This document shows, piece by piece, positions 6,046-27,569 of a stretch of DNA of 64,000 bases (positions within the stretch are counted from its first letter, which is position 1; each line of letters opens with the position of its first letter). Position numbers and translations under genes: made by a program. The stretch spans positions 33,099 to 97,098 of the forward strand of contig DATLAB010000014.1 of the NCBI GenBank assembly GCA_035527655.1, written 5' to 3'. This DNA comes from Patescibacteria group bacterium (GTDB taxonomy: Bacteria; Chloroflexota; Anaerolineae; Promineifilales; Promineifilaceae). A model generated the notes under the pieces. The model ran no database searches. It had not been told where the DNA came from and was given only the letters and a program-made list of their open reading frames with translations.

Positions 6046-6057
6046 GTTCACTTAGAT

Positions 6058-10580: not shown

Positions 10581-11206
10581 GCGGATCATCGATTCCTGCC
10601 TCTGTCCCACAACCATTACAAAAAGTGTCGGCGGCAGACATATTGGTCAGTCGCTGCCGATCAGGCGAGGAAGAAGCCTTTGTAGACGTGTATAACTATT
10701 ATGCAGGCTCGATCTATCGCTTATGCTTTAGCATCCTACAGCATCGGGAAGATGCCGAAGAGGTAATGCAGGATTCATTCGAGTACGCTTTTCGGCGAAT
10801 CAAAGTCTACGATGCCACCCGGTCTGCTTTTAAAACATGGCTGTATCAGATAGCGGTCAGTCGCTGCCGTAATAAGCGTCGCAGGAAATGGCTGACGGCG
10901 ATTCCCTTCAGCCAAATCCTTGGAGATCGGCTGGTTGATAACAGTATTATCCATCCAGACGAAAAGCTGGTCCTGGATGAGAGGCAGCGCAGGGTATGGG
11001 CTGCGTTAGGCCAATTGTCACCGAAGCTCAGGGAGACGGCCGTGCTTCGCTATTATGAAGGTCTGACTTATTCAGAAATTGGAGAGGTATTGGTTATTCC
11101 ACCAAAAACAGCAGAATCCCGAATGCGCCTGGCCCACACGTCGCTAGCAAAACTCTTAGAAGGAGAATTTGGCCAATTTGGGAGCGGAGGGCAAGATGAC
11201 ACCTGA
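10544..11206 (+). CDS. ECF-type RNA polymerase sigma factor (sigma-70 family, regions 2 and 4)
   Basis: Region 2 reads EDAEEVMQDSFEYAFRRI...FKTWLYQIAVSRCRNKRR, and region 4 HTH reads LRETAVLRYYEGLTYSEIGEVLVIPPKTAESRMRLA. The start is ambiguous: ATG 10544 overlaps the upstream gene by 37 nt, while an in-frame GTG at 10577 forms a GTGA overlap with the upstream stop. Confidence 0.9.
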   Translation: MATRRPGWRIPVSGSSIPASVPQPLQKVSAADILVSRCRSGEEEAFVDVYNYYAGSIYRLCFSILQHREDAEEVMQDSFEYAFRRIKVYDATRSAFKTWLYQIAVSRCRNKRRRKWLTAIPFSQILGDRLVDNSIIHPDEKLVLDERQRRVWAALGQLSPKLRETAVLRYYEGLTYSEIGEVLVIPPKTAESRMRLAHTSLAKLLEGEFGQFGSGGQDDT

Positions 11207-11756
11207 ATCAGATCAGCAACATGTCAATAAGATATTAACTGATTATGTGCTCGAACTTTTACCATTAGCAGAACATAAAGCAGCTACTCGGCATATAGCC
11301 CGCTGTGTAAACTGCCGGCAAGCGGTGGTGCGCGAGCGGCAGATAGGCCTGGTAGTAAAACAGACGCTGGCTACGGCAACGGCTGACAAGCGAAAACCAC
11401 TCAACAACAGTTGGAATATGCAGGTCAACCACCACCATTTCTGGAATCTTATAAATCAGGGTCGGAAGCAGATCTTCCTGGCTTCCTGCTTGCTCATCCT
11501 GGCCTTAGCCACTCTTGGAATACAGCTAAGATTACATCAGAATGATATACTGGCCACTACCCCGGCGATATTGTCGACAGCAATCCTGAACACCGAAACG
11601 CCAACGGCCACACTCCTGGCAACATCCGAAGGGATTCAAAATTCAGCCATTATTTCCCCGACACCCCCTTCATCAAAAACTATCCCGCTACCGGAGATAG
11701 CCCTGGCGCCGGCGGCCGTGTTCCCGGGTCAACTATTACCCAGATCATTCCAATGA
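11169..11756 (+). CDS. Anti-sigma factor, zf-HC2 type, single TM
   Basis: Has the HX3CX2C motif (HIARCVNC) at the N-terminus and one TM (IFLASCLLILALATLGI). It lies immediately downstream of and overlapping the ECF sigma gene. ATG 11196 (MTPESDQQ) is a plausible alternative start. Confidence 0.7.
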   Translation: MANLGAEGKMTPESDQQHVNKILTDYVLELLPLAEHKAATRHIARCVNCRQAVVRERQIGLVVKQTLATATADKRKPLNNSWNMQVNHHHFWNLINQGRKQIFLASCLLILALATLGIQLRLHQNDILATTPAILSTAILNTETPTATLLATSEGIQNSAIISPTPPSSKTIPLPEIALAPAAVFPGQLLPRSFQ

Positions 11757-11813
11757 TTCTTGCATACAGCCTAATACCAGACCACCATACCACTGTATTA
11801 ACCGAGGAAATTA

Positions 11814-14800
11814 ATGAGTGATTTGAGCGAGACAACTGACAAGTCTACCGACGAATTCCTGAGCCGACCATTGCTATCCGCGATCAACCTGGATGTTGAG
11901 AAAACGATATACCTGGTAATAATATTGTTGGCCCTGGCTACTCGACTTTGGGGGATTGGTGATCGCGTTGTCAGTCATGATGAAAGCCTTCACACCCAAT
12001 ATTCTTATCTTTACTACAATGGTGATGGCTACAACCATACGCCTTTGATGCATGGTCCGTCACTTTTCCATATTACGGCCTTATCTTATTGGCTTCTCGG
12101 CGACAATGATACCAGCGCCAGAATTCCTGTCGCTTTGGTTGGCGTATTGCTGGTATTCATGCCCTACTTCCTCCGGGGTTGGATCGGCAAGACAGGCGCA
12201 TTAGTCGCTAGTTTTCTCCTCCTAATATCGCCCTATATCACGTACTATTCCCGCTACATCAGGCACGACATCCTGATTATCACCTCGGCGCTATTAGTAT
12301 TCATTTCAATCGTTCATTATCTGCGAAAGCGTCAGGATAAATACATATGGTGGTTTGCACTGGGCATGGCCTTAATGTTCACCACCATGGAGACATCGTT
12401 TATCTATGTTGCCATATTCGGCAGTTTTTTAGTCCTGGCTCTTGCGGCCAAAATCTTTACAGCGTCCTGGTTTCTTGACCAATGGAGGCGGTTGCTGCTA
12501 CCACTGGGCCTCGTATTACTCGCCTTGGTTATATTTAGTATCGGATTTATGGGCCAAAGGGCTATCGAGAAGAGCGCCAACGCCCAAAGTGAGGCCACCG
12601 CAGTCGTTACCGACGAAGGCTTCGCCGCCGATCCCGACCAGGAGCTTGTCACAGAAGCCGATCAGGATTTGCCATCAGCCGACGATACTCTTTATCGTTG
12701 GTTGCAGATTGGCGGCATCATCGTACTCACCGGCGGGATGTTCTTGATAGCTTTCAGACTTCGTCCCTATATCGATGAAATACCCGAGTTTGATCTGGTT
12801 GTACTTTTCACCACTTTAACCTTGCCAACAGCGACAGCATTCCTCATCGTTATGGCGGGCAAGAATCCCCTGGCCTACACAATCAACAATTGTGAATTGG
12901 TAGGCCAGGAGACAATGTCCTCAATAAAACTGTTTTTTAATCAGGCGTTTAATGAAACCTGCCGCGATGCTTTCTTATCATCCTCAGTTTTAGTATCGGC
13001 CGGCTTCCTGATTTTAACGTTGCTGGTCTCACTCCTGGTTGGAATATGGTGGAACCGCCGCCGTTGGCTCATTGCGGCTGTCATCTATCATGGGATCTTC
13101 TTGTTACTCTTCTCCTCACTATTCTCCAATCCTGCGGGGTGGACCAGTGGCATGGTGGGCTCCCTGGGCTACTGGCTGGAACAACAAGCCGTGCAACGGG
13201 CTAACCAGCCCTCTTACTTCTATTTCATCGTATTACCGCTATATGAATTTTTACCGTTGTTGTTCATGCTGCTTGCCGGATTCTATTGGGCAGCCAAAAG
13301 CAGGCTGAACAAGATTTATGCCTACCTTTTCGGCTCGGTTCTCTTAGCTGCCTTCACTTACTATTTGATTAATCAACTAACGAATCAGGATGCCGTCCTT
13401 CGGGAAGAAATGACCAGGATGCCCGCTATGGTCGCCGCGCTGATCGTCATCACTCTGGCTGTGGTCTTGTTTATACTCCTCCTCATTCGTTGGATTCAAA
13501 CTGAGCGAATTGGGGATGGAGACGAGGATGATATCGACGGCGTCTGGGACAGGATGAACAGCGCCGTAAACGAGTTGTTTGACTTTGTTCCCTATCTCAT
13601 CTGGTGGTTCGTTGTATCCTGGGTTATTTACACCTACGCCGGTGAAAAAATGGCCTGGCTCAGCAGCCACTTTGTAGTCCCCATGGTTTTGATGGCCGGT
13701 TGGTATATCAATGAAAAGCTGACATCTGCCAATCTAGGTGAACTACGAACCCGGCGATTTGCCTTGTTAACGGCGCTTGACCTACTCTTCCTATTCGCCT
13801 TGGGCGTCGTCCTGGGGCCACTCTTGCTTGGCGATATTTCTATTCGAGGCCAAGAATTGGACAACTTGACCAATCTTGGCCGGCTGATTGGCAGTCTCAT
13901 TATTCTTGGAACAGTTGTATATTTTTTCCGCCGGGTTGGCCGGATTTTTGAGTCCGGCACTCGTAGGCGAGCCTGGATTTTCGCCATTTTTTTGTTCCTG
14001 GCACTGCTCACGATCCGCTTTACCTATATGTCCAGCTTTACCAATGCGGATAACGTCACCGAGTTTCTAGTCTACGCCCATGGCGCCCCGGCAACCAAGA
14101 ATGAAGTTCTGCCCCAGCTCGAAGAGCTTTCCCTGCGTCTGCATGGCGATAAGAGCATTCAGGTAGCTTTCGACAATGATTCCTCATGGCCATTTACCTG
14201 GTATTTGCGAGATTATCCAAACAGGATCTACTTCGGGGAAGAGCCTGGTCGAAATGTAACCGAAGCGCCTGTAGTTATTGCCGGCAGCCTCAATTGGAAC
14301 AAAGTCGAACCAATACTTGGAGATGATTACGAACAGAAGAACTATACATTCCTCTGGTGGCCGATGGAGGAATATCGAAATATATCCTGGAAAGCGATCC
14401 TCGGGGATCCTGATGCCGAGGCTGGGACCCGGCGCGGTCTTGGCAATCCCGACGTCAGAAAGGCTCTTTGGGATATATTCTTTTACCGAGACTATGAAAA
14501 ATATAGCCAAGTATACGGTGGCACATATACCGCAGGCCAATGGCCATTGCGCCATGATTTGCGAATGTATATTAGAAAAGATGTATTAACCACTATCTGG
14601 GATCATGGCGTGGATATTTTGGCAGCCGAGCCGCCGGTCGATCTCTATGCAGAGGGCGAATTATTATTGTCCCCATCACTTTCAATTGGAACAACCGGTT
14701 CAGAAGTTGGACAGTTGCTTCGGCCCAGGAACATGGCCATCGGTGAGGACGGAATGATCTTCGTGACCGATTCGGGCAATCATCGCATCCAGGTATTCGA

Positions 14801-15563
14801 TCAGGATGGATTCTTTCAATATAGCTGGGGTGAGTTTGGAATCGAACCAGGTCAATTTAATGAGCCCTGGGGTATAGCTGTTGACGATGATTTTGTCTAC
14901 GTTGCGGATACGTGGAATCACCGAATTCAGAAGTTTTCCCATGATGGTGAACTAATCGACGTTTTTGGCCAGAGCGGCTCCCCTACCCAAGACCAGGTAG
15001 GCGGAGGTCTTTTTTTCGGACCCCGAGATATCACCTTCAATTCTGATGGCCATCTGGTGGTCACCGACACAGGGAATCACCGGCTCCAAATATTCGATAC
15101 CGATGGCAATTTTATTGAAACGGTCGGTTCTCAGGGTAATTTACCCGGCCAATTCTATGAACCTGTTGGAGTTGCCACGATGGCAACGGGTTCTCTTCTG
15201 GTAGTCGACACATGGAATGGCCGCATCCAACGAATTGGCGGCAACCTGTTGCCTGAGACCGAATGGGCGGTAGACGCATGGTATGGGGAGTCAATTGAAA
15301 ATAAGCCATACATAGCAGTCGATCAGAATGACCGGGTCTATGTCAGCGATCCTGAGGGGTATCGTATATTGATTTTCGACACGACGGGCCAATACCTTGG
15401 TAGATTTGGTCAATTCAGTCTAGATTTGGATGGTTTTGGGCTACCGAATGGGGTTGCCGTCAGTCCAGATGGCAGCATCTTCGTAGCTGATGCCGGCAAC
15501 AACCGTGTCCTCAAGTTTGAAATCGACTTAAATCAAATACCATTGCCGCCGAGCGAGCCATAG
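11814..15563 (+). CDS. TIGR03663-like GT-C membrane protein fused to a C-terminal six-bladed NHL-repeat beta-propeller (1249 aa)
   Basis: SD GAGGAAATTAATG. The family's invariant residues are present (SHDESLH, MHGPSLFH). Many TM helices follow. The C-terminal roughly 290 aa hold six NHL-like repeats (GNHRIQVFDQDG, WNHRIQKFSHDG, GNHRLQIFDTDG, WNGRIQRI, EGYRILIFDTTG, GNNRVLKFE). TAG stop. Confidence 0.85.
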   Translation: MSDLSETTDKSTDEFLSRPLLSAINLDVEKTIYLVIILLALATRLWGIGDRVVSHDESLHTQYSYLYYNGDGYNHTPLMHGPSLFHITALSYWLLGDNDTSARIPVALVGVLLVFMPYFLRGWIGKTGALVASFLLLISPYITYYSRYIRHDILIITSALLVFISIVHYLRKRQDKYIWWFALGMALMFTTMETSFIYVAIFGSFLVLALAAKIFTASWFLDQWRRLLLPLGLVLLALVIFSIGFMGQRAIEKSANAQSEATAVVTDEGFAADPDQELVTEADQDLPSADDTLYRWLQIGGIIVLTGGMFLIAFRLRPYIDEIPEFDLVVLFTTLTLPTATAFLIVMAGKNPLAYTINNCELVGQETMSSIKLFFNQAFNETCRDAFLSSSVLVSAGFLILTLLVSLLVGIWWNRRRWLIAAVIYHGIFLLLFSSLFSNPAGWTSGMVGSLGYWLEQQAVQRANQPSYFYFIVLPLYEFLPLLFMLLAGFYWAAKSRLNKIYAYLFGSVLLAAFTYYLINQLTNQDAVLREEMTRMPAMVAALIVITLAVVLFILLLIRWIQTERIGDGDEDDIDGVWDRMNSAVNELFDFVPYLIWWFVVSWVIYTYAGEKMAWLSSHFVVPMVLMAGWYINEKLTSANLGELRTRRFALLTALDLLFLFALGVVLGPLLLGDISIRGQELDNLTNLGRLIGSLIILGTVVYFFRRVGRIFESGTRRRAWIFAIFLFLALLTIRFTYMSSFTNADNVTEFLVYAHGAPATKNEVLPQLEELSLRLHGDKSIQVAFDNDSSWPFTWYLRDYPNRIYFGEEPGRNVTEAPVVIAGSLNWNKVEPILGDDYEQKNYTFLWWPMEEYRNISWKAILGDPDAEAGTRRGLGNPDVRKALWDIFFYRDYEKYSQVYGGTYTAGQWPLRHDLRMYIRKDVLTTIWDHGVDILAAEPPVDLYAEGELLLSPSLSIGTTGSEVGQLLRPRNMAIGEDGMIFVTDSGNHRIQVFDQDGFFQYSWGEFGIEPGQFNEPWGIAVDDDFVYVADTWNHRIQKFSHDGELIDVFGQSGSPTQDQVGGGLFFGPRDITFNSDGHLVVTDTGNHRLQIFDTDGNFIETVGSQGNLPGQFYEPVGVATMATGSLLVVDTWNGRIQRIGGNLLPETEWAVDAWYGESIENKPYIAVDQNDRVYVSDPEGYRILIFDTTGQYLGRFGQFSLDLDGFGLPNGVAVSPDGSIFVADAGNNRVLKFEIDLNQIPLPPSEP

Positions 15564-15709: not shown

Positions 15710-16048
15710 GTGAGACTCGTTGCCTATCTTCTAGCCGGCGCAATTGGATTGCTCGGGTTGGTATTTATCGTGGGCTGGCAAAACCAGGCTTCTCGCCTCA
15801 TCATAGGGGCAATTCTTATCGGAACAGCCTTCTTCATCGTCTATCTGAATCGTATCCAGGCCAAATCATCTACAACCACCATTCAACAAATAGATTTAAG
15901 TGGCGACGTCAATCTCGAGGAGATACGTTGCAATTCCTGCAACGCTCCCCTTAGTAAGGATGATATCGATGTGAAAGCGGGGGCGATCTTCGTCAACTGT
16001 GCCCACTGTGGGGCGACTTACCAGTTTGAGGAAAAACCAAAATGGTAA
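15710..16048 (+). CDS. Small membrane protein with two TM helices and a C-terminal CxxC...CxxC zinc ribbon
   Basis: GTG start 6 nt after GGAGG. TM helices LVAYLLAGAIGLLGLVFIVGW and LIIGAILIGTAFFIVYL are followed by CNSCNAPL...NCAHCGATY. Its stop overlaps the ATG of the next gene (ATGGTAA). Confidence 0.6.
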   Translation: MRLVAYLLAGAIGLLGLVFIVGWQNQASRLIIGAILIGTAFFIVYLNRIQAKSSTTTIQQIDLSGDVNLEEIRCNSCNAPLSKDDIDVKAGAIFVNCAHCGATYQFEEKPKW

Positions 16049-17694
16049 CCAGCAGGGTTTCCAACACGGGTCGCCAGCTACTAGCTTCTCTGCGCCAGGA
16101 TCTGTCAAGCTTAGCTGCCACTGTCTCCCAGAAGTCTGATATAACACCCGGTTTGTATACCTATAAGATCCCCCTTTCCGGCGGAAAACGACGTTTTCAC
16201 CTACGGATAGAGCAAGATGGTCAGGGAATACTATTTGTTGACGTCACGGATGTCGTCCATTTGAATCGCACCGCGGCTCAAATCACCAAAAATGCTTTGG
16301 ATGGTCTGCCCAAGCGAGTGACCATGGCTCAACTGGCGGCCAGGTATAACAATTTAGGCGTCAGTGATATCCTGGATGAAGTTAATACCATTTACGAGAT
16401 GATCGATCAATTTGGCGATCCCAGAGTTGATTGTCCTACGTGTGCGGTAGCTTCTCTAGACAGAGCCCCGCTCTTCAGTTTGCGAGCCAACGCCCCGTAC
16501 AAGGCCGATCTCGCTCTGACGTACGGTTGTAATAATCAATGCGCTCATTGTTATAACGAACCCGATCGCTTCAGCATGGCCTCTTTAAGCCGGAGCGAAT
16601 GGTACACGGTATTGGACCAACTCCATGAGGTCGCCATCCCCCATATCATTTTCACAGGTGGAGAAGCGACTCTCCATCCTGATCTACTCGAATTGATAAA
16701 TTATGCTGACTCCTTAGGCATGGTGACCGGCCTCAATTCAAATGGCCGGCGCATGGCTAGACTCACCTATGCCCGGGAACTTGTCGATTCGGGACTCAAT
16801 CACGTCCAGGTAACACTCGGCTCTCACCAGTCAGGGTTGCATGATGCTATCATGGGCGCCAGTTCATTTCATCAAACCGTAGCAGGCATCAAGAATGCCA
16901 TTTCGGTTGGTCTTCACTGCATTACCAATACGACGCTCATGCGCTGTAATATGGATCAGGTCGAAGCGCTCATCAACTTCATCTATGAGCTTGGTGTCAG
17001 GACCTTCGCCATGAATGGTATGATTTATTCAGGTGGCGGCTTCTCAGATCCTAATACCATTCCGGAAAGTGCATTACCACCACTCCTGTTGCGGGTTCGC
17101 GATCATGCTGCCACCAAAAACATGCGCTTCCTCTGGTACACGCCGACTGAATATTGTCGCATGTCACCGGTAGAGCTGGAAATAGGCGCTAAACGATGCA
17201 ACGCTGGTGAATATTCAATATGCATTGAGCCTAATGGCGATGTGCTGCCATGCCAATCCTTTTACACCGCTGCCGGGAACATCCTATCGGACAATTGGTC
17301 CGACATCTGGCAGGGAGATCTTTTCTTGAGTTTTCGGGAAAGAGAGGTCGATCCGCGATTAGCCGGTCTACCTGAAAAATGCTGGGAGTGTCCAGATTTG
17401 CCGTTGTGCGGCGGTGGCTGCCGCATAGAACGGGAAGCTCGCGAAGGAAAGCGCGCAGCCCTCAGCCTTGATAACCACCTGGCCTGCGGGGGCGGTTGTG
17501 GTACGGGTCGCACATCTCTGAAGGTAGATGGGAAGTTAGGGTATTCACCACCTCCAGGTGCGATAAATCCTCAATTGCGATCAACCGGCCAAGGAACCCG
17601 GTTGATCCCCCTGGCGGACCTTACAAACAGCCATAACGGGCACACCAACGCCAAAAACATGGTTGGTTCTGGAGATGGGCAGGAGATAGGATGA
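16042..17694 (+). CDS. Radical SAM / SPASM-domain enzyme with an N-terminal PqqD/RRE-like extension
   Basis: CX3CX2C cluster motif in LTYGCNNQCAHCYN and a GGE motif in IIFTGGEATL. SPASM signature CNAGEYSICIEPNGDVLPC followed by CWECPDLPLCGGGC (CX2CX5CX3C). The N-terminal roughly 130 aa contain a PqqD-like HLNRTAAQITKNALDG. There is a roughly 100-aa low-complexity C-terminal tail. Confidence 0.9.
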   Translation: MVTSRVSNTGRQLLASLRQDLSSLAATVSQKSDITPGLYTYKIPLSGGKRRFHLRIEQDGQGILFVDVTDVVHLNRTAAQITKNALDGLPKRVTMAQLAARYNNLGVSDILDEVNTIYEMIDQFGDPRVDCPTCAVASLDRAPLFSLRANAPYKADLALTYGCNNQCAHCYNEPDRFSMASLSRSEWYTVLDQLHEVAIPHIIFTGGEATLHPDLLELINYADSLGMVTGLNSNGRRMARLTYARELVDSGLNHVQVTLGSHQSGLHDAIMGASSFHQTVAGIKNAISVGLHCITNTTLMRCNMDQVEALINFIYELGVRTFAMNGMIYSGGGFSDPNTIPESALPPLLLRVRDHAATKNMRFLWYTPTEYCRMSPVELEIGAKRCNAGEYSICIEPNGDVLPCQSFYTAAGNILSDNWSDIWQGDLFLSFREREVDPRLAGLPEKCWECPDLPLCGGGCRIEREAREGKRAALSLDNHLACGGGCGTGRTSLKVDGKLGYSPPPGAINPQLRSTGQGTRLIPLADLTNSHNGHTNAKNMVGSGDGQEIG

Positions 17695-17747
17695 AATTCA
17701 AGATCTGTTGCGGGTAACAAATTAGACAGATCGGGCTAAGTAACGAT

Positions 17748-19046
17748 ATGGATAAATTTCTATTCTTACCAACCCCAAGAAAATTACCTCCCCAGATTCC
17801 CCACGGACTTTATCATTATATGCGGGAAGTAGATGGTAGTTTCACCAGGTTTCACCTCCGAGTTGAGCCAGACGGCCGGGGAATGCTCATGGCCAATGCT
17901 TCCGCAGCCGCCCGGTTGTCCCCGGTTGGGGTAAGAATGGCGAAAGGCTTGCTCGACGGAGAGACCAAAGATCAAATCTTAAACGAGACCAGGCAACGTT
18001 TTAGGGGCGCTTCGCCAGGTGCCATGGTGGAGGACTATCACCTCATAGAGAACCTTATTATCTCTCTGTCCTTACCCGGAGATAACTACCCGATTGTCAA
18101 TCTTGAAGATCCCGAAATCTCACCCTTCGACATTGAACTTATGGCTCCCTGGCAGGCAGATTTACCATTGGCCAGCCCACATGAAACCATCGCGATATTG
18201 GACCGTCTATGGGAAATTGGCATCCCCCATGTAACCATTTTTGTGCCACCGGAATTGGATCCTGATTACCTTATCCAAACGATTGAGCGGGCCGAAGATC
18301 TTGGCATGATCGCCGGTGTACGCGCTCGGGCAACAGATCTCAATGTTACAGGGTTATTGGATGATATATCCATGGCCGGTATCGATTACATAACATTGCT
18401 AGTTGCTTCAAATACAGCAATGCTGCATGACAGCCTGGCTGGGGTCGATGACCTGGCCAAGGTCTGGCCGCTCTTTGCCGCGATGTTAGAGTGTGAAATC
18501 GCCCCGGTGGCAGAATTACCGCTAACTCGCCGGACTACAGCCGAGCTTGAAGTCACATTAGAGAGATTGTTAGAGGCGCAGGTCCATAACGTAAATTTTG
18601 TTGCCTACGCTATACCAGACATTCTGGCTATAGAGGAAAATGAGGATTTTTTACCCGCATCAAGCCTGCCCCAGGTGGCGGACATGGTCGAGGAAATGGC
18701 TTCAGAACTGGAGGTTCGGTTCATATGGCAGCCTCCAGTCGGCGGCGACCCAAATATTTCACTTGGCGAGCAAATTGTCCGCGGTCCCCGATGTTCTGAC
18801 GACGCCTCTATTCGGGTAAACGCCAATGGCGATGTGATCCCTCCCCGAGGCGCCTCTCAGATAGCCGGTAACTTGCTCACAGATGATTGGGAGAAAATAT
18901 GGTCCAATACTTCTTTTGTGAGATATCGAGAAAGGCTTGAAAGGCCTACCAGGTGCGATGAGTGCCCGGGAATGGCCATCTGCGCGGCCGATTGTCCGCG
19001 GAATGTATCGGGCTGGTCCACTTCTTCAGGAGGTTATGATCGATGA
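17748..19046 (+). CDS. Radical-SAM-like paralog lacking the CX3CX2C cluster, with a retained SPASM-type CX2CX5CX3C motif and an RRE-like N-terminus
   Basis: The N-terminus is paralogous to the previous gene (FHLRVEPDGRGML vs FHLRIEQDGQGIL; RLSPVGVRMAKGLLDG). Where the cluster should sit, the sequence reads ADLPLASPHETIA with no Cys. The C-terminus keeps CSDDASIRVNANGDVIPP and CDECPGMAICAADC. Confidence 0.75.
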   Translation: MDKFLFLPTPRKLPPQIPHGLYHYMREVDGSFTRFHLRVEPDGRGMLMANASAAARLSPVGVRMAKGLLDGETKDQILNETRQRFRGASPGAMVEDYHLIENLIISLSLPGDNYPIVNLEDPEISPFDIELMAPWQADLPLASPHETIAILDRLWEIGIPHVTIFVPPELDPDYLIQTIERAEDLGMIAGVRARATDLNVTGLLDDISMAGIDYITLLVASNTAMLHDSLAGVDDLAKVWPLFAAMLECEIAPVAELPLTRRTTAELEVTLERLLEAQVHNVNFVAYAIPDILAIEENEDFLPASSLPQVADMVEEMASELEVRFIWQPPVGGDPNISLGEQIVRGPRCSDDASIRVNANGDVIPPRGASQIAGNLLTDDWEKIWSNTSFVRYRERLERPTRCDECPGMAICAADCPRNVSGWSTSSGGYDR

Positions 19047-20962
19047 TACAGGGTCGAAAGGAATTCCCTGCCAGCGAACGATCAAATCGACGATTTGTGA
19101 ACCGGCCCTTCTTGAGCGGTTCGCGACTTCTGATCGGCGCTCTTCTTCTGCTTGTGCTTTTACTGGCGCAACCGGCAACCGCAGCGGCACAAGGTTTGGA
19201 TTTTTCGGTACCTGAATTGAAAATGGAGGTCTACGTTCAACCGGACGCTTCTGCCAGAATCATTTATGATATTACCTTTGCTAACAGTCCAGTTGGTGGC
19301 ACCATTGACATCGTCGATATTGCCACATCCCATGATGGCTATGACCTCAACAATATGAGCGCTACGCTTAACGGATCTCCGGTGAAGGATATCCGGGTGT
19401 CTGAGTTTATTGACACGGGAGTCGAGATTCATTTAGGTGATCACGCCATAGCACCGGGTGATCACGCTACGTTACATTTTGAACTTACAATGCCCGACCT
19501 GGTTTTTCAGGATACAACCCGGGGCGATTACGCATCATTCCAGATCATGCCGACGCCTTTCGAACCAGGTTTCCTTCAAGGGACCTCCGATATTTGGATA
19601 GCCGTTCACATGCTGCCCGGCATAGCACTCGATGAGTTGTTATACCAGGATGTTCAATTTAGCGACAAGATAATTTTTAATGACCATTCAGTTGCTGCCT
19701 GGCGCTGGCCCCAGGAAGATCTCAACGATCTCCAAGCGGTTGGCGTTTCATTCCCCAGGCGGGGGATGAGCCGCGTAATTGAGCAATCATTCCTGGAACT
19801 GGCGGAAAAGTGGCTCGTAGACAATCCCTCGACACACTTCCTGTTAGGTATGCTTACTATCGTATTCTTCATCATTACTTACTTCCGATTCACCTGGGGA
19901 ACAGGTATCTCCGTATTTGTCGTGCTTACCGCCGGCCTTATCTGGATCTTGTATACCGTTCCCTTATTAGTGCTTCTTGCATTGCCGGTGATGATTCTGT
20001 TATTTGCGCTCAATGAAAGACGTCTCTATACCCAGAAACACCATTACTTACCGGCAATCGCCCAGGTCGAGGGCGGTGGCATCAAACGAGGGTTGACTGC
20101 TCCAGAGGCCGCCGTTCTCCTGGAACTACCGTTGAACAAGATCTTGACCCTGCTGCTTTTCGGCCTCTTGGAAAAGGGGATTTGCCAGCAACAACAAGAT
20201 ACGCCTCTTATCGTAACCATTTCACCCGAGTACACCGTAAATGAGGTTCCGAGTAAGCTCCAACGGGCAGAGCGACTCAAGATAGCTCAGGATTTAGGGG
20301 TCGTAATTCGCAGTTACGAACATGCTTTTCTCAAGCAGATCGAGGAGAACACGGATATTCCAGTCAAGGACATTGACTTTGCCGAACCCATGAAAAACCT
20401 CATTAGTAATACGGTCCGCCGGATGAAGGGTTTTGATCTTTCGGATACTCAAGAGTATTACCGCAAGATAATTACCCGCGCGATGAAAGAAGCCAGGAGC
20501 ATTGGCGAGATACCCGAACGTGAGCAATATTTGGACCGGCACCTGCAGTGGCTTCTTATGGATGACGACTACCCAACAGTTTTTTCAGCGAGACGTTACC
20601 ATTACCGCCCTGTTTGGGTCAGACCTTTCGCCAGCAGCGATCGCCTGGGTGGATCCTTTTCTAGGGTAATGGGCAGCCCCAACGCCCCTGGGGGAAAGAC
20701 ATCCTTCAGCGATGTGACTGCTTCATTTGCCGGCTGGACCGAGAATACCATGGGCAACCTGGCCTCATCTATCGCTCCTGGCGCTATCCGGATGGATGGT
20801 CCTGCTGGTAGGATTAACCTGAGTGGCGCAGACAAAGTAACCAAGGATGTATTCAAGGCTCTGACAACCTCATCAGGCGGTGGCCGTTCCGGTGGCGGCG
20901 GTTGCGCCTGTGCCTGTGCCGGCTGTGCCTGTGCTTGTGCATGCGCTGGCGGCGGCCGGTAA
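19043..20962 (+). CDS. Membrane protein (DUF2207-like architecture) ending in a Gly-rich then (Cys-Ala)n tail
   Basis: The ATG overlaps the upstream stop (ATGA). It has a signal/anchor (LLIGALLLLVLLLAQPATAAAQG) and an extracytoplasmic N-domain starting LDFSVPELKMEVYVQPDASARIIYDITF. Three TM helices sit mid-protein, followed by a cytoplasmic domain. The C-terminus is SSGGGRSGGGGCACACAGCACACACAGGGR. Confidence 0.7.
   Translation: MIQGRKEFPASERSNRRFVNRPFLSGSRLLIGALLLLVLLLAQPATAAAQGLDFSVPELKMEVYVQPDASARIIYDITFANSPVGGTIDIVDIATSHDGYDLNNMSATLNGSPVKDIRVSEFIDTGVEIHLGDHAIAPGDHATLHFELTMPDLVFQDTTRGDYASFQIMPTPFEPGFLQGTSDIWIAVHMLPGIALDELLYQDVQFSDKIIFNDHSVAAWRWPQEDLNDLQAVGVSFPRRGMSRVIEQSFLELAEKWLVDNPSTHFLLGMLTIVFFIITYFRFTWGTGISVFVVLTAGLIWILYTVPLLVLLALPVMILLFALNERRLYTQKHHYLPAIAQVEGGGIKRGLTAPEAAVLLELPLNKILTLLLFGLLEKGICQQQQDTPLIVTISPEYTVNEVPSKLQRAERLKIAQDLGVVIRSYEHAFLKQIEENTDIPVKDIDFAEPMKNLISNTVRRMKGFDLSDTQEYYRKIITRAMKEARSIGEIPEREQYLDRHLQWLLMDDDYPTVFSARRYHYRPVWVRPFASSDRLGGSFSRVMGSPNAPGGKTSFSDVTASFAGWTENTMGNLASSIAPGAIRMDGPAGRINLSGADKVTKDVFKALTTSSGGGRSGGGGCACACAGCACACACAGGGR
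20903..20947 (+). repeat. Seven TGYGCN hexanucleotide units (one GGC interruption) encoding the Cys-Ala repeat
   Basis: The sequence reads tgcgcc tgtgcc tgtgcc ggc tgtgcc tgtgct tgtgca tgcgct, in frame with the 19043 ORF. Confidence 0.9.
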
Positions 20963-20969
20963 CTTTTCT

Positions 20970-21776
20970 ATGACAGGCCCTGACCCTGACGGCCTTCCGG
21001 ACCTGTCAGAAAGCGAGCATCACAGAAATAAACTGTTGGAGTTCCCGGCTCTTCCCCGCAGGGAGCTTCTTGACTTCCAATCGTCCTGGCTTGCTCCGGC
21101 AAGATCCCGCATTCTTCGTCGTATCGCCATTGCCAGGAAGCATCGTATTCTAGATCTGGGAGCCGGGTATGGACAGGTAACCGTCGAATTGGCCCGCCGC
21201 TCATCGGGGCTGGTGGTTGCTTATGACTTGAATGAATTATCGCTACGCGAAACAGATAAGCTGCGAAGGATTGTTCGTGTAGCAGGCGATGCGGCCCTCC
21301 TACCCTTCGGGAGTGGTTCTTTCGATCTGATCTATTCCCAGTTTTCCCTGCTGTGGATCAAATCCTTGCCCCAAACCTTGGACGAGATAACTAGGGTACT
21401 CGAGCCGACCGGGGTTTTAGTTGCCCTGGAACCGGATTATGCGGCAATGATCGAATACCCACCGGCCGTAGCTACCAGGCAGATTTGGCTTGATGCCCTT
21501 TTGCGCTCGGGAGCCGATCCCAGGATCGGTCGAAAATTACCTGGTCAGCTAGCTGCTCTTGGTTTTTCGGTAAGGGTAAATTTATTGGAGCAGATTCAAC
21601 CACCTTCTCCCCAACGATTTGAATTCTTGGAAGGCCTGCCTCTGACCGATGTCGAGCGATCGAGATTACGAGATATTCGCAAGTTGGCCGTGGAGCATGT
21701 CACCGGTGATGGGCAACAGATCAGCCATCTGCCCGTATTCCTCATCACCGCTGTCAAACGAACGTCTAAATCGTGA
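20970..21776 (+). CDS. Class I SAM-dependent methyltransferase
   Basis: Motif I ILDLGAGYGQVTVELARR with an acidic loop VVAYDL, and post-I/II FDLIYSQFSLLWI. The listed ORF begins at 20880, but its first 30 codons are an out-of-frame reading of the Cys-Ala repeat. ATG 20970 lies 8 nt after the upstream stop. Confidence 0.85.
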   Translation: MTGPDPDGLPDLSESEHHRNKLLEFPALPRRELLDFQSSWLAPARSRILRRIAIARKHRILDLGAGYGQVTVELARRSSGLVVAYDLNELSLRETDKLRRIVRVAGDAALLPFGSGSFDLIYSQFSLLWIKSLPQTLDEITRVLEPTGVLVALEPDYAAMIEYPPAVATRQIWLDALLRSGADPRIGRKLPGQLAALGFSVRVNLLEQIQPPSPQRFEFLEGLPLTDVERSRLRDIRKLAVEHVTGDGQQISHLPVFLITAVKRTSKS

Positions 21777-21904: not shown

Positions 21905-22414
21905 GTGACATTCATTATTCTCCTGATTGTCACAGCGCTGATCATGGTGGTATTGAGTTTCACCGGGCGGAATCTGATTACAGATGCAGCGCCAGGCGGC
22001 ATCTTGTCTTACGAGCTGGCGGGGCATGAGGACACAGCCCAGGGAATCCTGGATTCATGGGATGATATAGCCAGAATCTATGCCGGCTTCAACCTGGGCT
22101 TTGATTATCTTTTTTTGATCTTCTATTCAACAACAATCGCTCTTGCTATAATATAGGCGAGTGATTTGCTTGAGCTGAGACGAAGTTTAGTACGGCTGGC
22201 TGTTCTCCTGGCCTTGGGACTGCTCATGGCTGCCCTATTGGATGCAATTGAGGATGCCGTCCTCCTAAAGATGTTGGATGCCGGTGTATCTTCACCTTGG
22301 CCGCAGATCTCTTTCGTCTGCGCCATCGTTAAGTTTGGCCTGATATTCCTGGGGTTAACCTTTGTTATCGTCGTGTCTGTTTATTATTTGTGGCATGCAC
22401 ATCGAAATTCCTAG
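21905..22414 (+). pseudogene. Small polytopic membrane protein split by one in-frame TAG (22154-22156)
   Basis: The listed ORFs 21905..22156 and 22166..22414 are in the same frame and are separated only by TAG plus three sense codons (ASD). Both halves are hydrophobic and read as one roughly 169-aa protein. Confidence 0.45.
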
Positions 22415-22498: not shown

Positions 22499-25400
22499 GT
22501 GAATACAATTCTATCTAAACGCCATTTCAATTTGACCGCCTCAATGGTCGGGGCAGGACTTCTCCTGCTGACCGTCTGGCTAATGCTGGGCGGGCAACCT
22601 GTTCGCGCAGGCATGGAGGTCGTGATAGACCCCCTTCTGCTAGAGGCGCTGGAAACAGCCGAGCCGGGCGAACACCTTGAAATTATTGTCTATACGGATG
22701 AAGCAGAAAGCCCAATAGCCCCTGATTTCCCAGAAGATGGTTTGGCCAGGAGAATCGCCGTCGCAGAGAACTTAAAAAAGCAAGGAACCCTGGCGCTGAG
22801 CGGCGTTGTCAATCAATTGGAACGAGAGAAGCTCCAAGGAGATGTCTCCTCGATCAGACTCCTCTGGATTGTCAACGCGGTTCAAGTAACGGCAAATAAC
22901 GAGGCGATTGACGAATTGAGCAGCCATCCCGATGTCAGGTTAATCACTCTCGACCAGAAGATCCAGTTTCTTGAGCCAAAAGAGCTGTCATTAACCCAAG
23001 CCCCGATCTCCCTTAGCTGGGGAGTTGATATTATTCGATCAGCCTATGCCTGGCATGGACTTGGTGTAAGCGGTCAAGGTGTTACTGTGGCGATAATGGA
23101 TACCGGAGTGGATTGGGTTCATCCTGACCTATTAAATAATTATCGAGGGAATCCCGGAAACAATGACATTAAACACCTGGGAAATTGGTTTGACGCAGTT
23201 GATTCTTCCGTAGCACCCATCGATCCGAATGGCCATGGCACGCACGTCGCTGGTACCGCTGTTGGAGAAAATGGCATTGGTGTAGCGCCAGGCGCTGAAT
23301 GGATAGCTGTTCGTGTACTCGATTCGGAGGGCTACGGGAAAATCGGGGACATTCATGCTGGTTTTCAATGGCTTCTGGCACCGGACGGTGATCCAAACAA
23401 AAGCCCTGACCTGGTCAATAATTCATGGAGTGGTAGCACTCAGATGATCGATTTTATGACGGATATCTCAGCTCTACAATCCGCTGGAATTATTCCAATT
23501 TTTGCTGTCGGGAATCGGGGACCTTTTGAAGGGAGCGTTGGCGCCCCGGCCAGTTATCCTGGTACGGTTGCTGTGGGGGCCACCGATGATCAGGATTTGG
23601 TGGCCTGGTTTTCGAGTAGAGGACCATCACCATACACTGCCGATCCAAAACCGACCGTGGTTGCCCCGGGCACTAATATATTGTCTTCACTGCCCGATGG
23701 AAAATATGGTTTTTCCCTGGGTACTTCGATGGCTACACCCCATGTGGTCGGCGTTTATGCCCTCTTGCTCTCCGCCAATCCGGCTATGTCCGAGATTGAA
23801 GCGACAGCTATTATCACGAGAACAACCACCACGATCGACCTCGATCAGCCGAATCATGTCAGCGGATGGGGACGAGTTGATGCCTACGCTGCGCTATCTG
23901 AGGTTGCCGAGGGCGGTTTGATTGAGGGAACAGTTTTTCAAGATAGTGAGCCTCTCCCGGGAGCAACCATCGTAATAACGACCCCTCTTGGAATCCCTCT
24001 CGTATTCAAGTCTAATGAAGATGGTGTCTTCTCGGCCCACCTTTCGCCAGGCAACTATTCGCTAAAGATTGGGAATTTCGCCAGCACCGATCATTACTCT
24101 AAGGAAGTAGCCCTGATCGCTGGAGATAATATAAGATTCGATGTGTATCTCGAAAAGTTGCCAGGAGCTCGACTATATGGCCAGCTTCTTGATGGAACGA
24201 CTCTATCTCCTATCTCAGGCACACTTGAGATTCCTGGAACTCCTTTGGTGACATCTGTTGGGGACGATGGTCAGTACGATCTCTCGTTGCCCTTGGGCCA
24301 ATTTAAGGCAATTGCCAAATCGCTGGGTCACCTCAACGACCAGGATCTGGTCGATATCGGGGCGACTGATCTGCACCAGGATTTTTATTTAGAAAGGGCA
24401 CCGCGAATCCTGCTGGTTGACAGCGGTAATTGGTACTATCACGAAAAGCGAGAATACATATCAACTGCCTTAGCAGGATTGGACATCGGCTTCGAAACTT
24501 GGCCCATCCGCGATCCCTTTTTAGACATCCCCTCAAGTGAAGACCTGGCAAAATACGACATTATCGTTTGGTCTGCGCCCTTGGACTCTCCCGGATATAT
24601 TGGCGCGGGTAGCTCCTTGACTACCTACCTTGCAGAGGGAGGCAATCTGTTTATCTCGGGCCAAAATGTCGCCCTTTGGGATGGTAACCCCAGCCAACCA
24701 GAGCCTTGGTGGTATTCACAACTGAAGGGAGAATTTGTAAGGAAATCAGAGTTGCCCCTGACCATTGCGGGCGAACCCGACACTCTTTTCGCGGGGCTCG
24801 AGCTTGAACTAAATGGCCAGGATAGCGCAGATAATCAACTCTCAGTTGATATTAGTCAGCCGCAAACTAATAGCTTCACCCAAGTAGCATTTCGTTACGA
24901 CGATGGCAGCCCGGCAGCTCTCCAAGCGAGCTTGTGCGAACCCTATAGAATCGTTTATCTTGGCTTCGGTTTAGAAGGTGTTTCGTTTGCCAGTAAAAGA
25001 GAAGAAATACTTTCTCGCAGCTTCGACTATTTCGCCGTGCCAGCAAATGAAGCTGGTGTGTACTTGTCACCTGGTAGCCTGGATCAACTTGTTGCGGCGG
25101 GAAAAGAACACCAAATCGACGTCTTGATCACCAACCTGAGTGAGACTATCACCGATACCATTCAGCTAAGTCTGGAGCATGCTGAATGGCCTGCGCGAGT
25201 GATCACTGATTCTTTGACTCTTGGTCCTTGTCAAGCCGGGCAAATATCCTTATCAATTAGAGTTCCCACCGATCTAGCCGATGACTCCTTCGATGAGTTT
25301 GAGTTGGTAGCTACTTCCACCAATTCGCCTTCGAACCAAACGGTGATGCCCATTCGCCTAAAGACTCCCGGAAGAATATTGGTTGTGGACGACGACAGAT

Positions 25401-26764
25401 GGTATGACCAAGAAAAGCAATATGGGGATGTCTTGGATAAGCTTGGTTATCGCTATGATCTGTGGAATACGGACTATCCGCCAAATGGAAATGGCAGTCC
25501 ACCAGGGACTTTACTTAACCAGTACGAATTTGTGATCTGGTTCACCGCCTATGATTGGTTTCAACCTTTGACGGACTTTGAAACACTGACCCTCTACAAT
25601 TATTTGGAGGCAGGCGGTCGACTCTTCTTAACAAGCCAGGATTTTCTCTACTATCATCACAATGAGCCGTTGACGCTCGAATATTTAGGTATCCGAGACT
25701 ATCTTGAATCAGTCGAACCCAACAATGTATTTGGCAATCTTCGTCTGGGAATGCCGGTCGGACCATTGCCCCTCGATTATGCACCGTACCAAAATTTCAG
25801 CGATGGCCTAGTACCTTCGCCGTCGGCTGAGATTTTTGCCTGGCACGATGGAAGCGGAAGCGCTGCGGTAGCAAACAGTGGTAGTGATTGGCGAACAGTA
25901 TTCTGGGGATTGCCATTTGAGAAACTGCCGCTTGGTATTCAGCCGGAAGCTATGCGTCAAATATTGGGTTGGCTCAGTGATCTTGGCGACTCGACGTTTG
26001 AAAGCAGCAGCGAGCAAAGTAACAATCTGATTGGCGAAGATATCTTCGAGACTTACACCCTAACACTGCGAAATAGTTCTTCCGACACACCCGATAATTC
26101 GACAATAACCAACACACTGCCGCCGGCATTAACGATAGATCAAGATTCGATAACCGGTGGCGCCATCTATGATCCCGTAACTCGCCAATTATCGTGGTCT
26201 GGAGAGATCGCTGGTCGTGGCTCGCGGACGATCAGCTACCGGGCAACTACGGCTCCTGGTTTGACACCAGGAACCCAGATCAACAATCTTGTATCTGTGC
26301 TAGACTCACGACATGATCTAGCCTTTGAGCGCTCAGCGCCCATTTGGGTTGCCAGCGCAGACCTTAGTCAATCAGCGATCACGATCTCTCCCTCGGCCGT
26401 ACTACCTGGCGGGCTGGCAGAAATTCACGTTGACCTGCAGAATAATGGCGATAGATCGGCGACTATCAGCGCTACCATCCACATCGCCGCCGATCTGACG
26501 CCCATAACACCAACTATGTCAACAACGGATGGTTCGGTAACTATTACGGAGCAGCAACTTTCTTGGGGACTCGATCTGGATCCACATCAAGCAGCACAAC
26601 TGACGCTGGTAGTGTCCGCGACGAACGATGTTAGAACCAGGTGGCTACCTGCAACTTTGATTATTCAGGATGGCATTACCCATCCTATTTTCAAAGACGC
26701 GTTGCTGGAAATCAAGCCGGTGCAATTTTGGTTACCATTGATGGTTTTGGCTGATAGACCCTAA
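22499..26764 (+). CDS. Large secreted/anchored subtilisin-family (S8) serine peptidase with multiple C-terminal domains
   Basis: Catalytic triad motifs VAIMDTGVD, HGTHVAGTAVG and GTSMATPHVVG, plus an N-terminal TM/signal. The roughly 200-aa module is internally duplicated (PRILLVDSGNWYYHEKREY... and GRILVVDDDRWYDQEKQYG...). The C-terminus holds DUF11-like repeats (TNTLPPALTIDQDSITGG). The start is uncertain (GTG 22499 or ATG 22544). Confidence 0.9.
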   Translation: MNTILSKRHFNLTASMVGAGLLLLTVWLMLGGQPVRAGMEVVIDPLLLEALETAEPGEHLEIIVYTDEAESPIAPDFPEDGLARRIAVAENLKKQGTLALSGVVNQLEREKLQGDVSSIRLLWIVNAVQVTANNEAIDELSSHPDVRLITLDQKIQFLEPKELSLTQAPISLSWGVDIIRSAYAWHGLGVSGQGVTVAIMDTGVDWVHPDLLNNYRGNPGNNDIKHLGNWFDAVDSSVAPIDPNGHGTHVAGTAVGENGIGVAPGAEWIAVRVLDSEGYGKIGDIHAGFQWLLAPDGDPNKSPDLVNNSWSGSTQMIDFMTDISALQSAGIIPIFAVGNRGPFEGSVGAPASYPGTVAVGATDDQDLVAWFSSRGPSPYTADPKPTVVAPGTNILSSLPDGKYGFSLGTSMATPHVVGVYALLLSANPAMSEIEATAIITRTTTTIDLDQPNHVSGWGRVDAYAALSEVAEGGLIEGTVFQDSEPLPGATIVITTPLGIPLVFKSNEDGVFSAHLSPGNYSLKIGNFASTDHYSKEVALIAGDNIRFDVYLEKLPGARLYGQLLDGTTLSPISGTLEIPGTPLVTSVGDDGQYDLSLPLGQFKAIAKSLGHLNDQDLVDIGATDLHQDFYLERAPRILLVDSGNWYYHEKREYISTALAGLDIGFETWPIRDPFLDIPSSEDLAKYDIIVWSAPLDSPGYIGAGSSLTTYLAEGGNLFISGQNVALWDGNPSQPEPWWYSQLKGEFVRKSELPLTIAGEPDTLFAGLELELNGQDSADNQLSVDISQPQTNSFTQVAFRYDDGSPAALQASLCEPYRIVYLGFGLEGVSFASKREEILSRSFDYFAVPANEAGVYLSPGSLDQLVAAGKEHQIDVLITNLSETITDTIQLSLEHAEWPARVITDSLTLGPCQAGQISLSIRVPTDLADDSFDEFELVATSTNSPSNQTVMPIRLKTPGRILVVDDDRWYDQEKQYGDVLDKLGYRYDLWNTDYPPNGNGSPPGTLLNQYEFVIWFTAYDWFQPLTDFETLTLYNYLEAGGRLFLTSQDFLYYHHNEPLTLEYLGIRDYLESVEPNNVFGNLRLGMPVGPLPLDYAPYQNFSDGLVPSPSAEIFAWHDGSGSAAVANSGSDWRTVFWGLPFEKLPLGIQPEAMRQILGWLSDLGDSTFESSSEQSNNLIGEDIFETYTLTLRNSSSDTPDNSTITNTLPPALTIDQDSITGGAIYDPVTRQLSWSGEIAGRGSRTISYRATTAPGLTPGTQINNLVSVLDSRHDLAFERSAPIWVASADLSQSAITISPSAVLPGGLAEIHVDLQNNGDRSATISATIHIAADLTPITPTMSTTDGSVTITEQQLSWGLDLDPHQAAQLTLVVSATNDVRTRWLPATLIIQDGITHPIFKDALLEIKPVQFWLPLMVLADRP

Positions 26765-27243: not shown

Positions 27244-27569
27244 CCCTGTATTGGGGCTTAAGCTCAGAAAGCCAAAAATTTGGAATCTACTTTTAACTAC
27301 AAATATTAATCAAGCTGTCGACTTCTATCAACCTGAGTTAAAATGATTTATACTGACAGTAGGATAGGGGTACAAATAATGCAGTTCAGATACCAGACCA
27401 GGGCTTCACGGAGATTCCTGCTTAGGAATTCCGACCGGACCACTGGGTCTTGAAGCCGGGTAAATCAACGAAATGAATCTCGGTCCCCAATTAATAATCT
27501 GTATGAATTGGTATTCTCTAGCCTAAGCCAACCTCATATTGATGTTGGATATGCCATCGATATGCCATT

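Follow-up and report, generated by a model that had tools for sequence, protein, structure and literature searches.

The last 19 residues of a membrane protein encoded on contig DATLAB010000014.1 are near-invariant among its homologs and are probably modified by a radical S-adenosylmethionine (SAM) enzyme encoded in the same operon. The operon lies in a 64,000-nucleotide stretch of the contig (referred to as the window) and, according to the list of open reading frames (ORFs), consists of five tightly packed genes, A to E, all on the + strand at 15710-21776. The tail, an alternation of Cys and Ala, belongs to protein D. It is the most strictly conserved part of the system and points to an undescribed, enzyme-made modification on a membrane-protein tail. 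By its sequences, the cassette is classified here as radical-SAM maturation of the type known from peptides that ribosomes make and that are modified after translation (RiPPs), applied to the tail of a polytopic membrane protein and involving a paired pseudo-enzyme.

15710-16048, + strand: gene A, 112 residues; two N-terminal transmembrane helices and a C-terminal CxxC...CxxC zinc-ribbon or rubredoxin-like knuckle; GTG start
16042-17694, + strand: gene B, 550 residues; radical SAM/SPASM enzyme with an N-terminal domain resembling a RiPP recognition element (RRE)
17748-19046, + strand: gene C, 432 residues; paralog of B without CxxxCxxC
19043-20962, + strand: gene D, 639 residues; membrane protein ending in CACACAGCACACACAGGGR
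20970-21776, + strand: gene E, about 268 residues from the ATG at 20970; class I SAM-dependent methyltransferase (PF08241)

The Cys-Ala tail

An earlier note on this DNA, drawn from the sequence alone, had named the C-terminal tail of D as one of the two best candidates for a substrate. This choice is now strongly favored, as the tail is near-invariant under synonymous change, nearly exclusive to D and predicted to be cytoplasmic. Among the 120 best homologs of D, which are otherwise about 50-80% identical, the last 19 residues are exactly CACACAGCACACACAGGGR in 98 and CACAGCACACACAGGGR, which has one Cys-Ala unit fewer, in 21; one sequence differs. A search of 185,579 species genomes seeded with B gave 42 loci, and a search of metagenomes seeded with D gave 80 further loci. 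The C-terminus of D is present on the contig in 30 of the B-seeded genome loci. All 30 proteins end in (CA)n-G-(CA)n-GGGR, and 22 of them have the exact sequence CACACAGCACACACAGGGR, although they are only 26-90% identical overall. The cassettes designated type 2 have a mirror arrangement, CACACACAGCACACAGGGR.

The codons of the tail vary synonymously at most positions (TGC 124 times and TGT 81 times; GCC, GCG, GCT and GCA; CGG, CGC, CGA, AGA and AGG). Since the peptide remains fixed while its codons vary, the constraint acts on the peptide and not on the DNA or RNA. A nucleotide-level cause of the tail, such as TGCGCA palindromes, an RNA hairpin or a terminator, was rejected for the same reason. 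A scan for internal terminators in the operon gave no more matches than expected by chance or found in shuffled sequence, and the terminator-like match at 20945-20960 belongs to that set.

When the last 42 residues of D were used as a query against 1.84 billion representative proteins with HMMER, 37 matches were found at E up to 0.001, all of them C-terminal and nearly all in D or in fragments of D. Within the window the motif is found a single time, and in the 42 B-seeded loci D is the only ORF that has it. The tail was also considered as a portable tag carried by other protein families. This was rejected, as there are only these 37 matches, and most of the short ones examined are fragments of D at contig ends.

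A few short database proteins (P0243, P0249, P0261 and P0269) also have the exact tail, but on unrelated or minimal N-termini, among them a single transmembrane helix, a porin-like signal sequence and a segment resembling UMP kinase. They may have arisen as assembly chimeras, or the tail may on rare occasions have another carrier.

Structure of protein D

The AlphaFold2 model of D, calculated from a 71-sequence alignment, has a predicted local distance difference test score (pLDDT) of 80. The features of D, all encoded on the + strand, are as follows; the first six are taken from the model and the last three from sequence conservation.

Residues 26-41: hydrophobic signal or anchor helix, with a basic N-terminus
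Residues 54-238: beta-sandwich, predicted to be extracytoplasmic
Residues 262-284, 289-305 and 309-332: three transmembrane helices
Residues 353-393: winged-helix-like domain, predicted to be cytoplasmic
Residues 404-514: helical domain, predicted to be cytoplasmic
Residues 530-559 and 611-639: disordered stretches
Residues 583-612 (20789-20878): pre-tail element G.INLSGADKVTKDVFKAL, with high column conservation
Residues 613-620: variable Gly/Ser linker, from the conservation profile
Residues 621-639 (20903-20959): core CACACAGCACACACAGGGR at the extreme C-terminus, near-invariant

D has at least 812 homologs, counted as clusters, and all source names among the matches listed are "hypothetical protein". 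The protein itself has no match in Pfam or NCBIfam, and a survey of 71 of its homologs at E up to 1 brings out no family that recurs. The idea that D is a DUF2207-type membrane protein (PF09972) with a low-complexity tail was dropped because D has no Pfam match and no such family recurs in these homologs. With Foldseek, only the beta-sandwich of D finds structural counterparts, in M1 aminopeptidases (their N-domain) and in ribophorin I/OST1 (E about 3e-7).

Because the three transmembrane helices follow the external domain, and because basic residues (NERRLYTQKHH) come directly after the third helix, the C-terminal 300 or so residues of D and the tail are assigned to the cytoplasm. In this predicted topology they would be within reach of the Fe-S enzymes B and C.

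The C-terminus of D is laid out like a RiPP precursor, with a conserved element (583-612), a variable Gly/Ser linker and a fixed core. The element at 583-612 is therefore proposed, from its sequence, to be a leader-like recognition segment. It has the form.DL.G.D..T.D in cassettes of types 1 and 3 and FT..VT..TNPPP in type 2, and the type-2 D proteins are paired with B proteins that are only about 40% identical to B of the window. A distinct type-2 element would be expected if leader and RRE co-evolve.

The active enzyme and its inactive paralog

Both B and C belong to the radical-SAM family by descent, but only B retains the residues needed to bind the SAM cluster. The main features of the two proteins, all on the + strand, are:

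16144-16416: RRE-like domain of B, residues ~35-125; strands followed by three helices, with an invariant CPTC after them
16528-16551: radical-SAM [4Fe-4S] motif of B, C163-x3-C167-x2-C170; Cys 100% conserved in 121 aligned sequences
17155-17421: SPASM domain of B, residues 372-460 (PF13186); eight invariant Cys, two auxiliary clusters expected
17805-18062: RRE-like N-terminus of C, residues ~20-105, by profile alignment to the N-terminus of B

B matches the radical SAM superfamily (PF04055) with 75 bits against a cut-off of 29.5 and the SPASM family (PF13186) with 39.1 bits against 21.5. The eight Cys residues of the SPASM domain (C372, C386, C394, C404, C447, C450, C456 and C460) are conserved in all of the 121 sequences, as is the CPTC pair C131/C134 that follows the RRE-like domain. 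There are more than 3000 homologs of B, mostly from Chloroflexota. Its best sequence matches in the PDB are PqqE (top), SkfB, BlsE and SuiB.

C is about 25% identical to B over about 430 residues, and the two give reciprocal tblastn matches in every locus. C has no match to PF04055 and lacks the radical-SAM cysteines. Its SPASM scores fall just below the thresholds (21.3 bits against 21.5 for PF13186 and 25.6 against 27 for TIGR04085). By sequence, C is thus a radical SAM homolog but no functional member of the superfamily. The earlier note had called it cluster-less, which holds for the SAM cluster only. C is probably a pseudo-radical-SAM protein retaining one auxiliary cluster: a CxxCx5Cx3C motif at residues 403-416 (18954-18995) is kept in 94% of homologs, together with one partly conserved Cys.

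Natural fusions suggest that B associates physically with C, and C with D. A 901-residue fusion of B and C (P0107) occurs on five contigs from at least three sequencing runs (L044-L046), with D and E coming next. A 948-residue fusion (P0257), known from a single cluster and as a protein sequence only, joins C, its SPASM remnant missing, to the N-terminus of D, before the first helix. If P0257 is real, C would associate with D, and the N-terminus of D would be cytoplasmic.

The RRE-like N-terminal domains

The N-terminal profiles of B and C align to each other with an hhalign probability of 99.7% (E 4.6e-27), showing that the two N-termini belong to one domain family. Pfam PqqD (PF05402) is matched by 10 of 26 N-termini of B homologs, with a best E of 2.4e-5, and there is a "faint" match to the same family in the fusion P0107. 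The best PDB match of the B profile is the lasso-peptide RRE protein TfuB1 (E 0.011), over the helix with the pattern LN.TAA.i...L.G to which the earlier note had drawn attention.

An AlphaFold2 model of residues 30-150 of B, calculated from a 44-sequence alignment, has a pLDDT of 79.8. Its strands (8-16, 19-27, 33-37 and 41-45, in model numbering) and helices (47-57, 62-72 and 78-95) follow in the order b-b-b-b-a-a-a, which agrees with a winged-helix fold (a three-stranded sheet and then three helices). The only Foldseek matches in the PDB that combine a low root-mean-square deviation (rmsd) with good coverage of the target, none of them significant by E-value, are TbiB1 with its leader peptide (probability 0.9, rmsd 2.4-2.7 Å, template-modelling score relative to the target 0.58-0.63) and PqqD (5sxy).

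Each of these lines of evidence is weak individually, although they converge, and the assignment of the domain in B and C as an RRE-type winged helix with an extra N-terminal hairpin is borderline. To this degree the PqqD-like extensions that the earlier note had described on both proteins, citing HLNRTAAQITKNALDG (residues 73-88 of B) and RLSPVGVRMAKGLLDG (residues 56-71 of C), are upheld.

Proteins A and E

A gives only weak zinc-ribbon matches in Pfam and NCBIfam. Four Cys residues are invariant and the segment IDLSGDV is conserved among 37 homologs, and the gene adjoins the cassette in most loci. E is a class I methyltransferase, matching PF08241 with 62 bits (cut-off 21.2) and PF13649 with 55 bits (cut-off 27). 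It reaches no NCBIfam equivalog, the best score being 54 bits against cut-offs of 155-327. The gene is found beside D in most loci, sometimes in divergent orientation.

The segment IDLSGDV of A (residues 69-75, 15914-15934), just before the zinc ribbon, resembles INLSGADKV in the pre-tail element of D (residues 591-599, 20813-20839). The resemblance is short and is missing from type-2 D proteins. The system has two RREs, and it is possible that each of them binds a strand of this kind.

Organization of the operon

The end of A overlaps the start of B in the sequence ATGGTAA (16042-16048), B and C are separated by 53 nt, and C and D overlap in ATGA (19043-19046), all as the earlier note had read them. 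The motifs quoted there for D (GGGGCACACAGCACACACAGGGR) and A (CNSC...CAHC) were also located. The spacer between D and E is short, as had been noted, but is 7 nt long (cttttct, 20963-20969) and not 8 nt. It precedes the ATG at 20970. The longest ORF of E begins with a GTG at 20880, inside D. Because the alignments of homologs begin at about residue 27-57 of that ORF, the ATG at 20970 is the likelier start. The GTG start of gene A has a GGAGG six bases on its 5' side. The G+C content of the window is about 50%, and the composition is unbroken at the cassette.

No conventional short precursor ORF had been seen between the genes, and the + strand intergenic gaps of 146, 53 and 7 nt indeed leave no room for one. 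A separate short precursor gene was rejected on these grounds and because there is no second Cys-Ala ORF in the window or in the 42 B-seeded loci.

Conservation of the cassette

The gene-neighborhood comparison that had been proposed as a check shows that the operon is syntenic in the 42 B-seeded genome loci. The order A-B-C-D-E is found in nearly all complete loci of this set, with 40-65% identity to the window, and also in the complete 4.46-Mb Chloroflexota genome CP070688.1 (L043). Judged by the labels of the metagenome-assembled genomes (MAGs), which are the source of the taxonomy given here, the loci come from Chloroflexota, Anaerolineae/Anaerolineales, Promineifilaceae, Ardenticatenaceae, Caldilineales, "Chloroflexia", Pirellulaceae/Planctomycetales and Acidobacteriota. 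Both the cassette and the tail recur across phyla, and neither is due to chance.

Other gene orders are seen in the D-seeded loci, namely A-B-C-D-D-E with a tandem D, A-D-B-(C)-E and B-D-E. In the 22 D-seeded loci that extend at least 4.5 kb on both sides, and after correction for fragments of B at locus ends, a true radical-SAM B is present in 19, C in 11, A in 13 and E in 16. These counts indicate that B and D are the constant pair, whereas C, A and E, though common, can be dispensed with in some lineages.

Several loci have a variant layout. In L011, L014, L019, L022 and L031, the active B lies beside a short (285-345 residues), tail-less paralog of the transmembrane and cytoplasmic region of D. 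In L014, L019 and L022 the system is split into two clusters, the tailed D being in the second one together with A and the pseudo-enzyme, so that all components are kept in addition to the short paralog. L031 is likewise split but is incomplete and shows, beyond the B cluster, the pseudo-enzyme only. Tandem D genes are found in L050, L052, L053, L058, L060, L065, L080 and L126, often with one CACACAG... tail and one shorter CACAG... tail. In L050, L080 and L126, B and C are in addition separated by about 3 kb of inserted sequence.

P0121, which is 100% identical to D of the window, is labeled "Patescibacteria group bacterium" at NCBI (VMZ24_03665). All related loci are Chloroflexota-like, and the closest genome, L001 (87-94% amino acid identity), is an "uncultured Chloroflexia" MAG, which makes a binning error the probable source of the Patescibacteria label.

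Comparison with known systems

None of the proteins A to E reaches an NCBIfam equivalog. The models tested included PqqE (TIGR02109), MftC (TIGR03962), the GeoRSP radical SAM protein (TIGR04303), NirJ, NirJ2, AhbC, AhbD, AlbA, SkfB, StsB, ScmE/F and the ACGX radical SAM protein. B scores 57-116 bits against cut-offs of 231-850, and the best score of C is 30 bits. The highest scores of B (NirJ2 116, GeoRSP 104, PqqE 104, AhbD 102, StsB 96, MftC 92, AlbA 72 and SkfB 69 bits) place it at roughly equal distances from all named SPASM subfamilies. The earlier note had found no named SPASM system that fits and had proposed a search with these hidden Markov models; the scores, all far below the cut-offs, agree with its view. 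A known cofactor or housekeeping pathway (pyrroloquinoline quinone (PQQ), mycofactocin, heme d1/Ahb, MoaA or anSME) was rejected because the scores are well below the cut-offs and the partner genes are not conserved. Full-text searches of the literature returned reviews of SPASM enzymes and nothing on the A-E cassette or the Cys-Ala tail.

SPASM enzymes that act on Cys in peptides or proteins include AnSME, AlbA and QhpD, the last acting on the QhpC subunit (PMC10114670). The sactipeptide and ranthipeptide maturases AlbA, SkfB, CteB and PapB have a fused N-terminal PqqD-like RRE, a radical-SAM core and a SPASM or twitch domain, an architecture that B would share, and act on Cys-rich cores downstream of a leader by chemistry that has been reviewed (PMC10114670). 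SkfB and SuiB are among the best PDB sequence matches of B. Nevertheless, B scores only 71.5 bits against a cut-off of 850 for AlbA, 68.6 against 300 for SkfB and 96 against 625 for StsB. The apparent substrate is the tail of a 639-residue polytopic membrane protein instead of a short peptide, its core is near-invariant whereas theirs are hypervariable, and an inactive paralog that looks obligatory is present.

QhpD is a radical SAM/SPASM enzyme that installs Cys thioethers in QhpC, which stays a functional subunit (PMC10114670). The product proposed here would likewise remain on a functional protein, with no peptide released. However, QhpC is small, soluble and periplasmic and carries Cys-Asp/Glu links together with a quinone cofactor, and that system has no membrane protein, Cys-Ala repeat or pseudo-enzyme partner. 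The QhpD model is not among the NCBIfam matches listed. AnSME is a SPASM enzyme that modifies Cys in a full-length protein substrate (PMC10114670). It differs in having no RRE, and the sulfatase motif C/S-x-P/A-x-R is missing from the tail of D. TIGR03942 is matched only by C, with 14 bits against 349.

The PQQ (PqqE/PqqD/PqqA) and mycofactocin (MftC/MftB/MftA) systems also combine a radical SAM/SPASM enzyme with an RRE acting on a short, invariant core, invariance being typical of cofactor-type systems. In mycofactocin the core is at the extreme C-terminus, as in D, and PqqE is the best PDB sequence match of B. The scores of B are well short of the cut-offs (103.7 bits against 381 for TIGR02109 and 91.7 against 265 for TIGR03962), and the partners PqqB/C and MftD/E/F are missing among the conserved neighbors of the cassette. 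The core chemistry of those systems involves Glu/Tyr or Val-Tyr, whereas here it would involve Cys-Ala, and the product probably stays attached.

The uncharacterized GeoRSP and TIGR04347 "pseudo-SAM/SPASM" systems combine a radical SAM/SPASM protein and a PqqD-family element with a SPASM paralog that lacks the SAM-cluster motif. The GeoRSP radical SAM model is the best NCBIfam match of C. The scores are nevertheless low (104 and 30 bits against 400, and 99 against 525), and we know of no Cys-Ala-tailed membrane protein that is part of these systems.

Proposed reaction and alternatives

The cassette would constitute a membrane-associated protein-maturation system resembling RiPP maturation. D would be situated in the membrane with its beta-sandwich outside and its C-terminal region of about 300 residues in the cytoplasm. 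B and C would form a complex, docking onto the pre-tail element of D through their RRE-like N-terminal domains. B would then cleave SAM to a 5'-deoxyadenosyl radical and abstract hydrogen within the Cys-Ala repeat, after which the SPASM clusters would bring the reaction to its end. The leading candidate for the product, on the model of AlbA, CteB, PapB and QhpD, is one or more Cys thioether cross-links of the intramolecular kind, although this particular chemistry is, on its own, less likely than not. Epimerization of alternate residues or oxidation at Cys C-beta are possible alternatives for the chemistry of B. C may be a non-catalytic partner that holds the substrate or relays electrons, A could tether the enzyme to the membrane or supply electrons in the manner of a rubredoxin, and E might methylate the product.

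The modified tail would not be released as an antibiotic but would remain part of D, serving as a fixed module with a structural, redox or metal-binding function. The product is expected to remain attached because the core is fixed and not hypervariable, and because no protease or exporter is conserved. It is conceivable, though speculative, that the (Cys-Ala)n-AGGGR tail is the precursor of a new membrane-tethered, protein-derived module (a thioether ladder or another Cys/Ala modification, subsequently methylated), which would serve as a redox, metal-handling or signaling cofactor on the cytoplasmic face of a sensor-like protein.

It is unlikely that the tail is left unmodified and is a ligand set for metal or Fe-S assembly. 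Either B and C, together with A, would then act on D by building, inserting or exchanging a cluster or metal, or D would be the donor of sulfur or metal to them. Seven Cys alternating with Ala would present their thiols on one face of an extended strand, C keeps only its auxiliary-cluster motif, and invariant cysteines are found both in A (four) and in the extra CPTC of B. Genes for rhodanese and DsrE-like proteins are located upstream of the cassette in one complete genome, but such sulfur-trafficking neighbors are not conserved in other loci. RRE domains, moreover, are peptide-recognition modules. Metal-binding tails are usually variable, low-complexity sequences, whereas here the sequence is fixed residue by residue, down to the AGGGR at its end, suggesting that it is held in register by an enzyme.

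An action of B and C on a small molecule or lipid at the membrane is improbable. In that case the RRE-like domains would dock to D and A as scaffolds, and the tail would have an unrelated role. B is indeed roughly equidistant from non-peptide SPASM enzymes (NirJ2, AhbD, BlsE-like) and peptide maturases, the tetraether-lipid synthase GDGT-MAS is among its PDB sequence matches, and the evidence for the RRE is borderline. However, no further biosynthetic genes are conserved with the cassette, and the near-invariance of the tail and its restriction to one family would be left unexplained.

Still more doubtful is the zinc ribbon at the C-terminus of A as the substrate, or as a second one. A is translationally coupled to B and is well conserved, and its IDLSGDV is similar to INLSGADKV of D; this likeness is short, however, and absent from type-2 D. 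CxxC...CxxC ribbons are common structural zinc sites. The earlier note had listed this part of A as another possible substrate, and while the motif is present, its candidacy is weakened by the absence of A from B-D-E loci and some others. Least credible is that D is a giant precursor whose modified tail is cleaved and released as a diffusible natural product, for instance by the neighboring S8 peptidase. The leader, linker and core layout and the 1421-residue subtilase encoded downstream in the window, in L001 and in CP070688.1 would allow it. However, RiPP antibiotics normally have hypervariable cores, whereas this core is fixed as in cofactor-type systems; the peptidase is conserved as a neighbor only in close relatives; the cassette has no conserved transporter; and the S8 protein is apparently secreted, whereas the location predicted for the tail is the cytoplasm.

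Several observations weigh against modification of the tail by B, with C as its partner. Thioether formation is argued from analogy only, and seven closely spaced Cys could simply bind metal. The tail is disordered in the AlphaFold2 model (pLDDT <50), which suits a substrate but also other roles. The N-terminus of B from the window itself has no Pfam PqqD match at E up to 10, and none of the Foldseek E-values for its model are significant against the PDB. Three D loci have no B within 7 kb. Several type-2 loci have no C, which is thus not universally required.

To our knowledge, RRE-bearing radical SAM/SPASM enzymes are almost exclusively maturases of short, separately encoded peptides, and in the few cases where a protein is known to be the substrate, that protein is soluble. 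In this system, what seems to be acted on is the C-terminal 19 residues of a polytopic membrane protein found in at least three phyla and hundreds of uncultured lineages, and the enzyme is accompanied by an inactive paralog. If the tail is modified, this would be a new post-translational modification of a protein and probably a new protein-derived cofactor or structural motif. It would also give a function to a large family of "hypothetical" membrane proteins (at least 812 clusters) and offer a simple model, open to testing, of the way in which active and inactive radical-SAM paralogs, with two RREs between them, work together. Should the modified tail indeed be a membrane-tethered cofactor as suggested above, the modification would be of the housekeeping type, common to many Anaerolineae-type Chloroflexota and to some Planctomycetota and Acidobacteriota, and RiPP chemistry carried out on a membrane protein of full length would form a new class. 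Tools that search for precursors only among short ORFs miss substrates that are fused to large proteins.

Neighboring genes in the window

The region upstream of the cassette (928-15563) encodes a series of very large membrane proteins, as is typical of envelope glycosylation. It includes a 1705-residue ORF, a DUF2298 protein (878 residues), a PMT_2-like protein (592 residues) and a protein with PMT_2 and NHL repeats (1249 residues), as well as an extracytoplasmic function (ECF) sigma factor at 10544-11206. The 1249-residue protein, the only upstream protein compared across loci, is shared only with the closest relative, L001. Downstream, at 22499-29138, the 1421-residue S8 subtilase with CarboxypepD_reg and DUF11 domains is followed by a WS/DGAT wax-ester synthase. 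The same order is found in CP070688.1, but not in most other loci. Membership of the NHL/PMT_2 protein and the S8 peptidase in the system was rejected, as both are shared only with close relatives and are taken to reflect local synteny. A defense system was also rejected, PADLOC having given only generic matches to the radical-SAM core and the methyltransferase.

Downstream of E, at 21905-22414, is a gene for a small protein with several transmembrane helices. A homologous gene of 182 residues occupies the same position in CP070688.1 and L001. In the window its reading frame is interrupted by a TAG at 22154-22156, a position occupied by Trp (TGG) in both relatives; this is either a nonsense mutation, making the gene a pseudogene, or a sequencing error.

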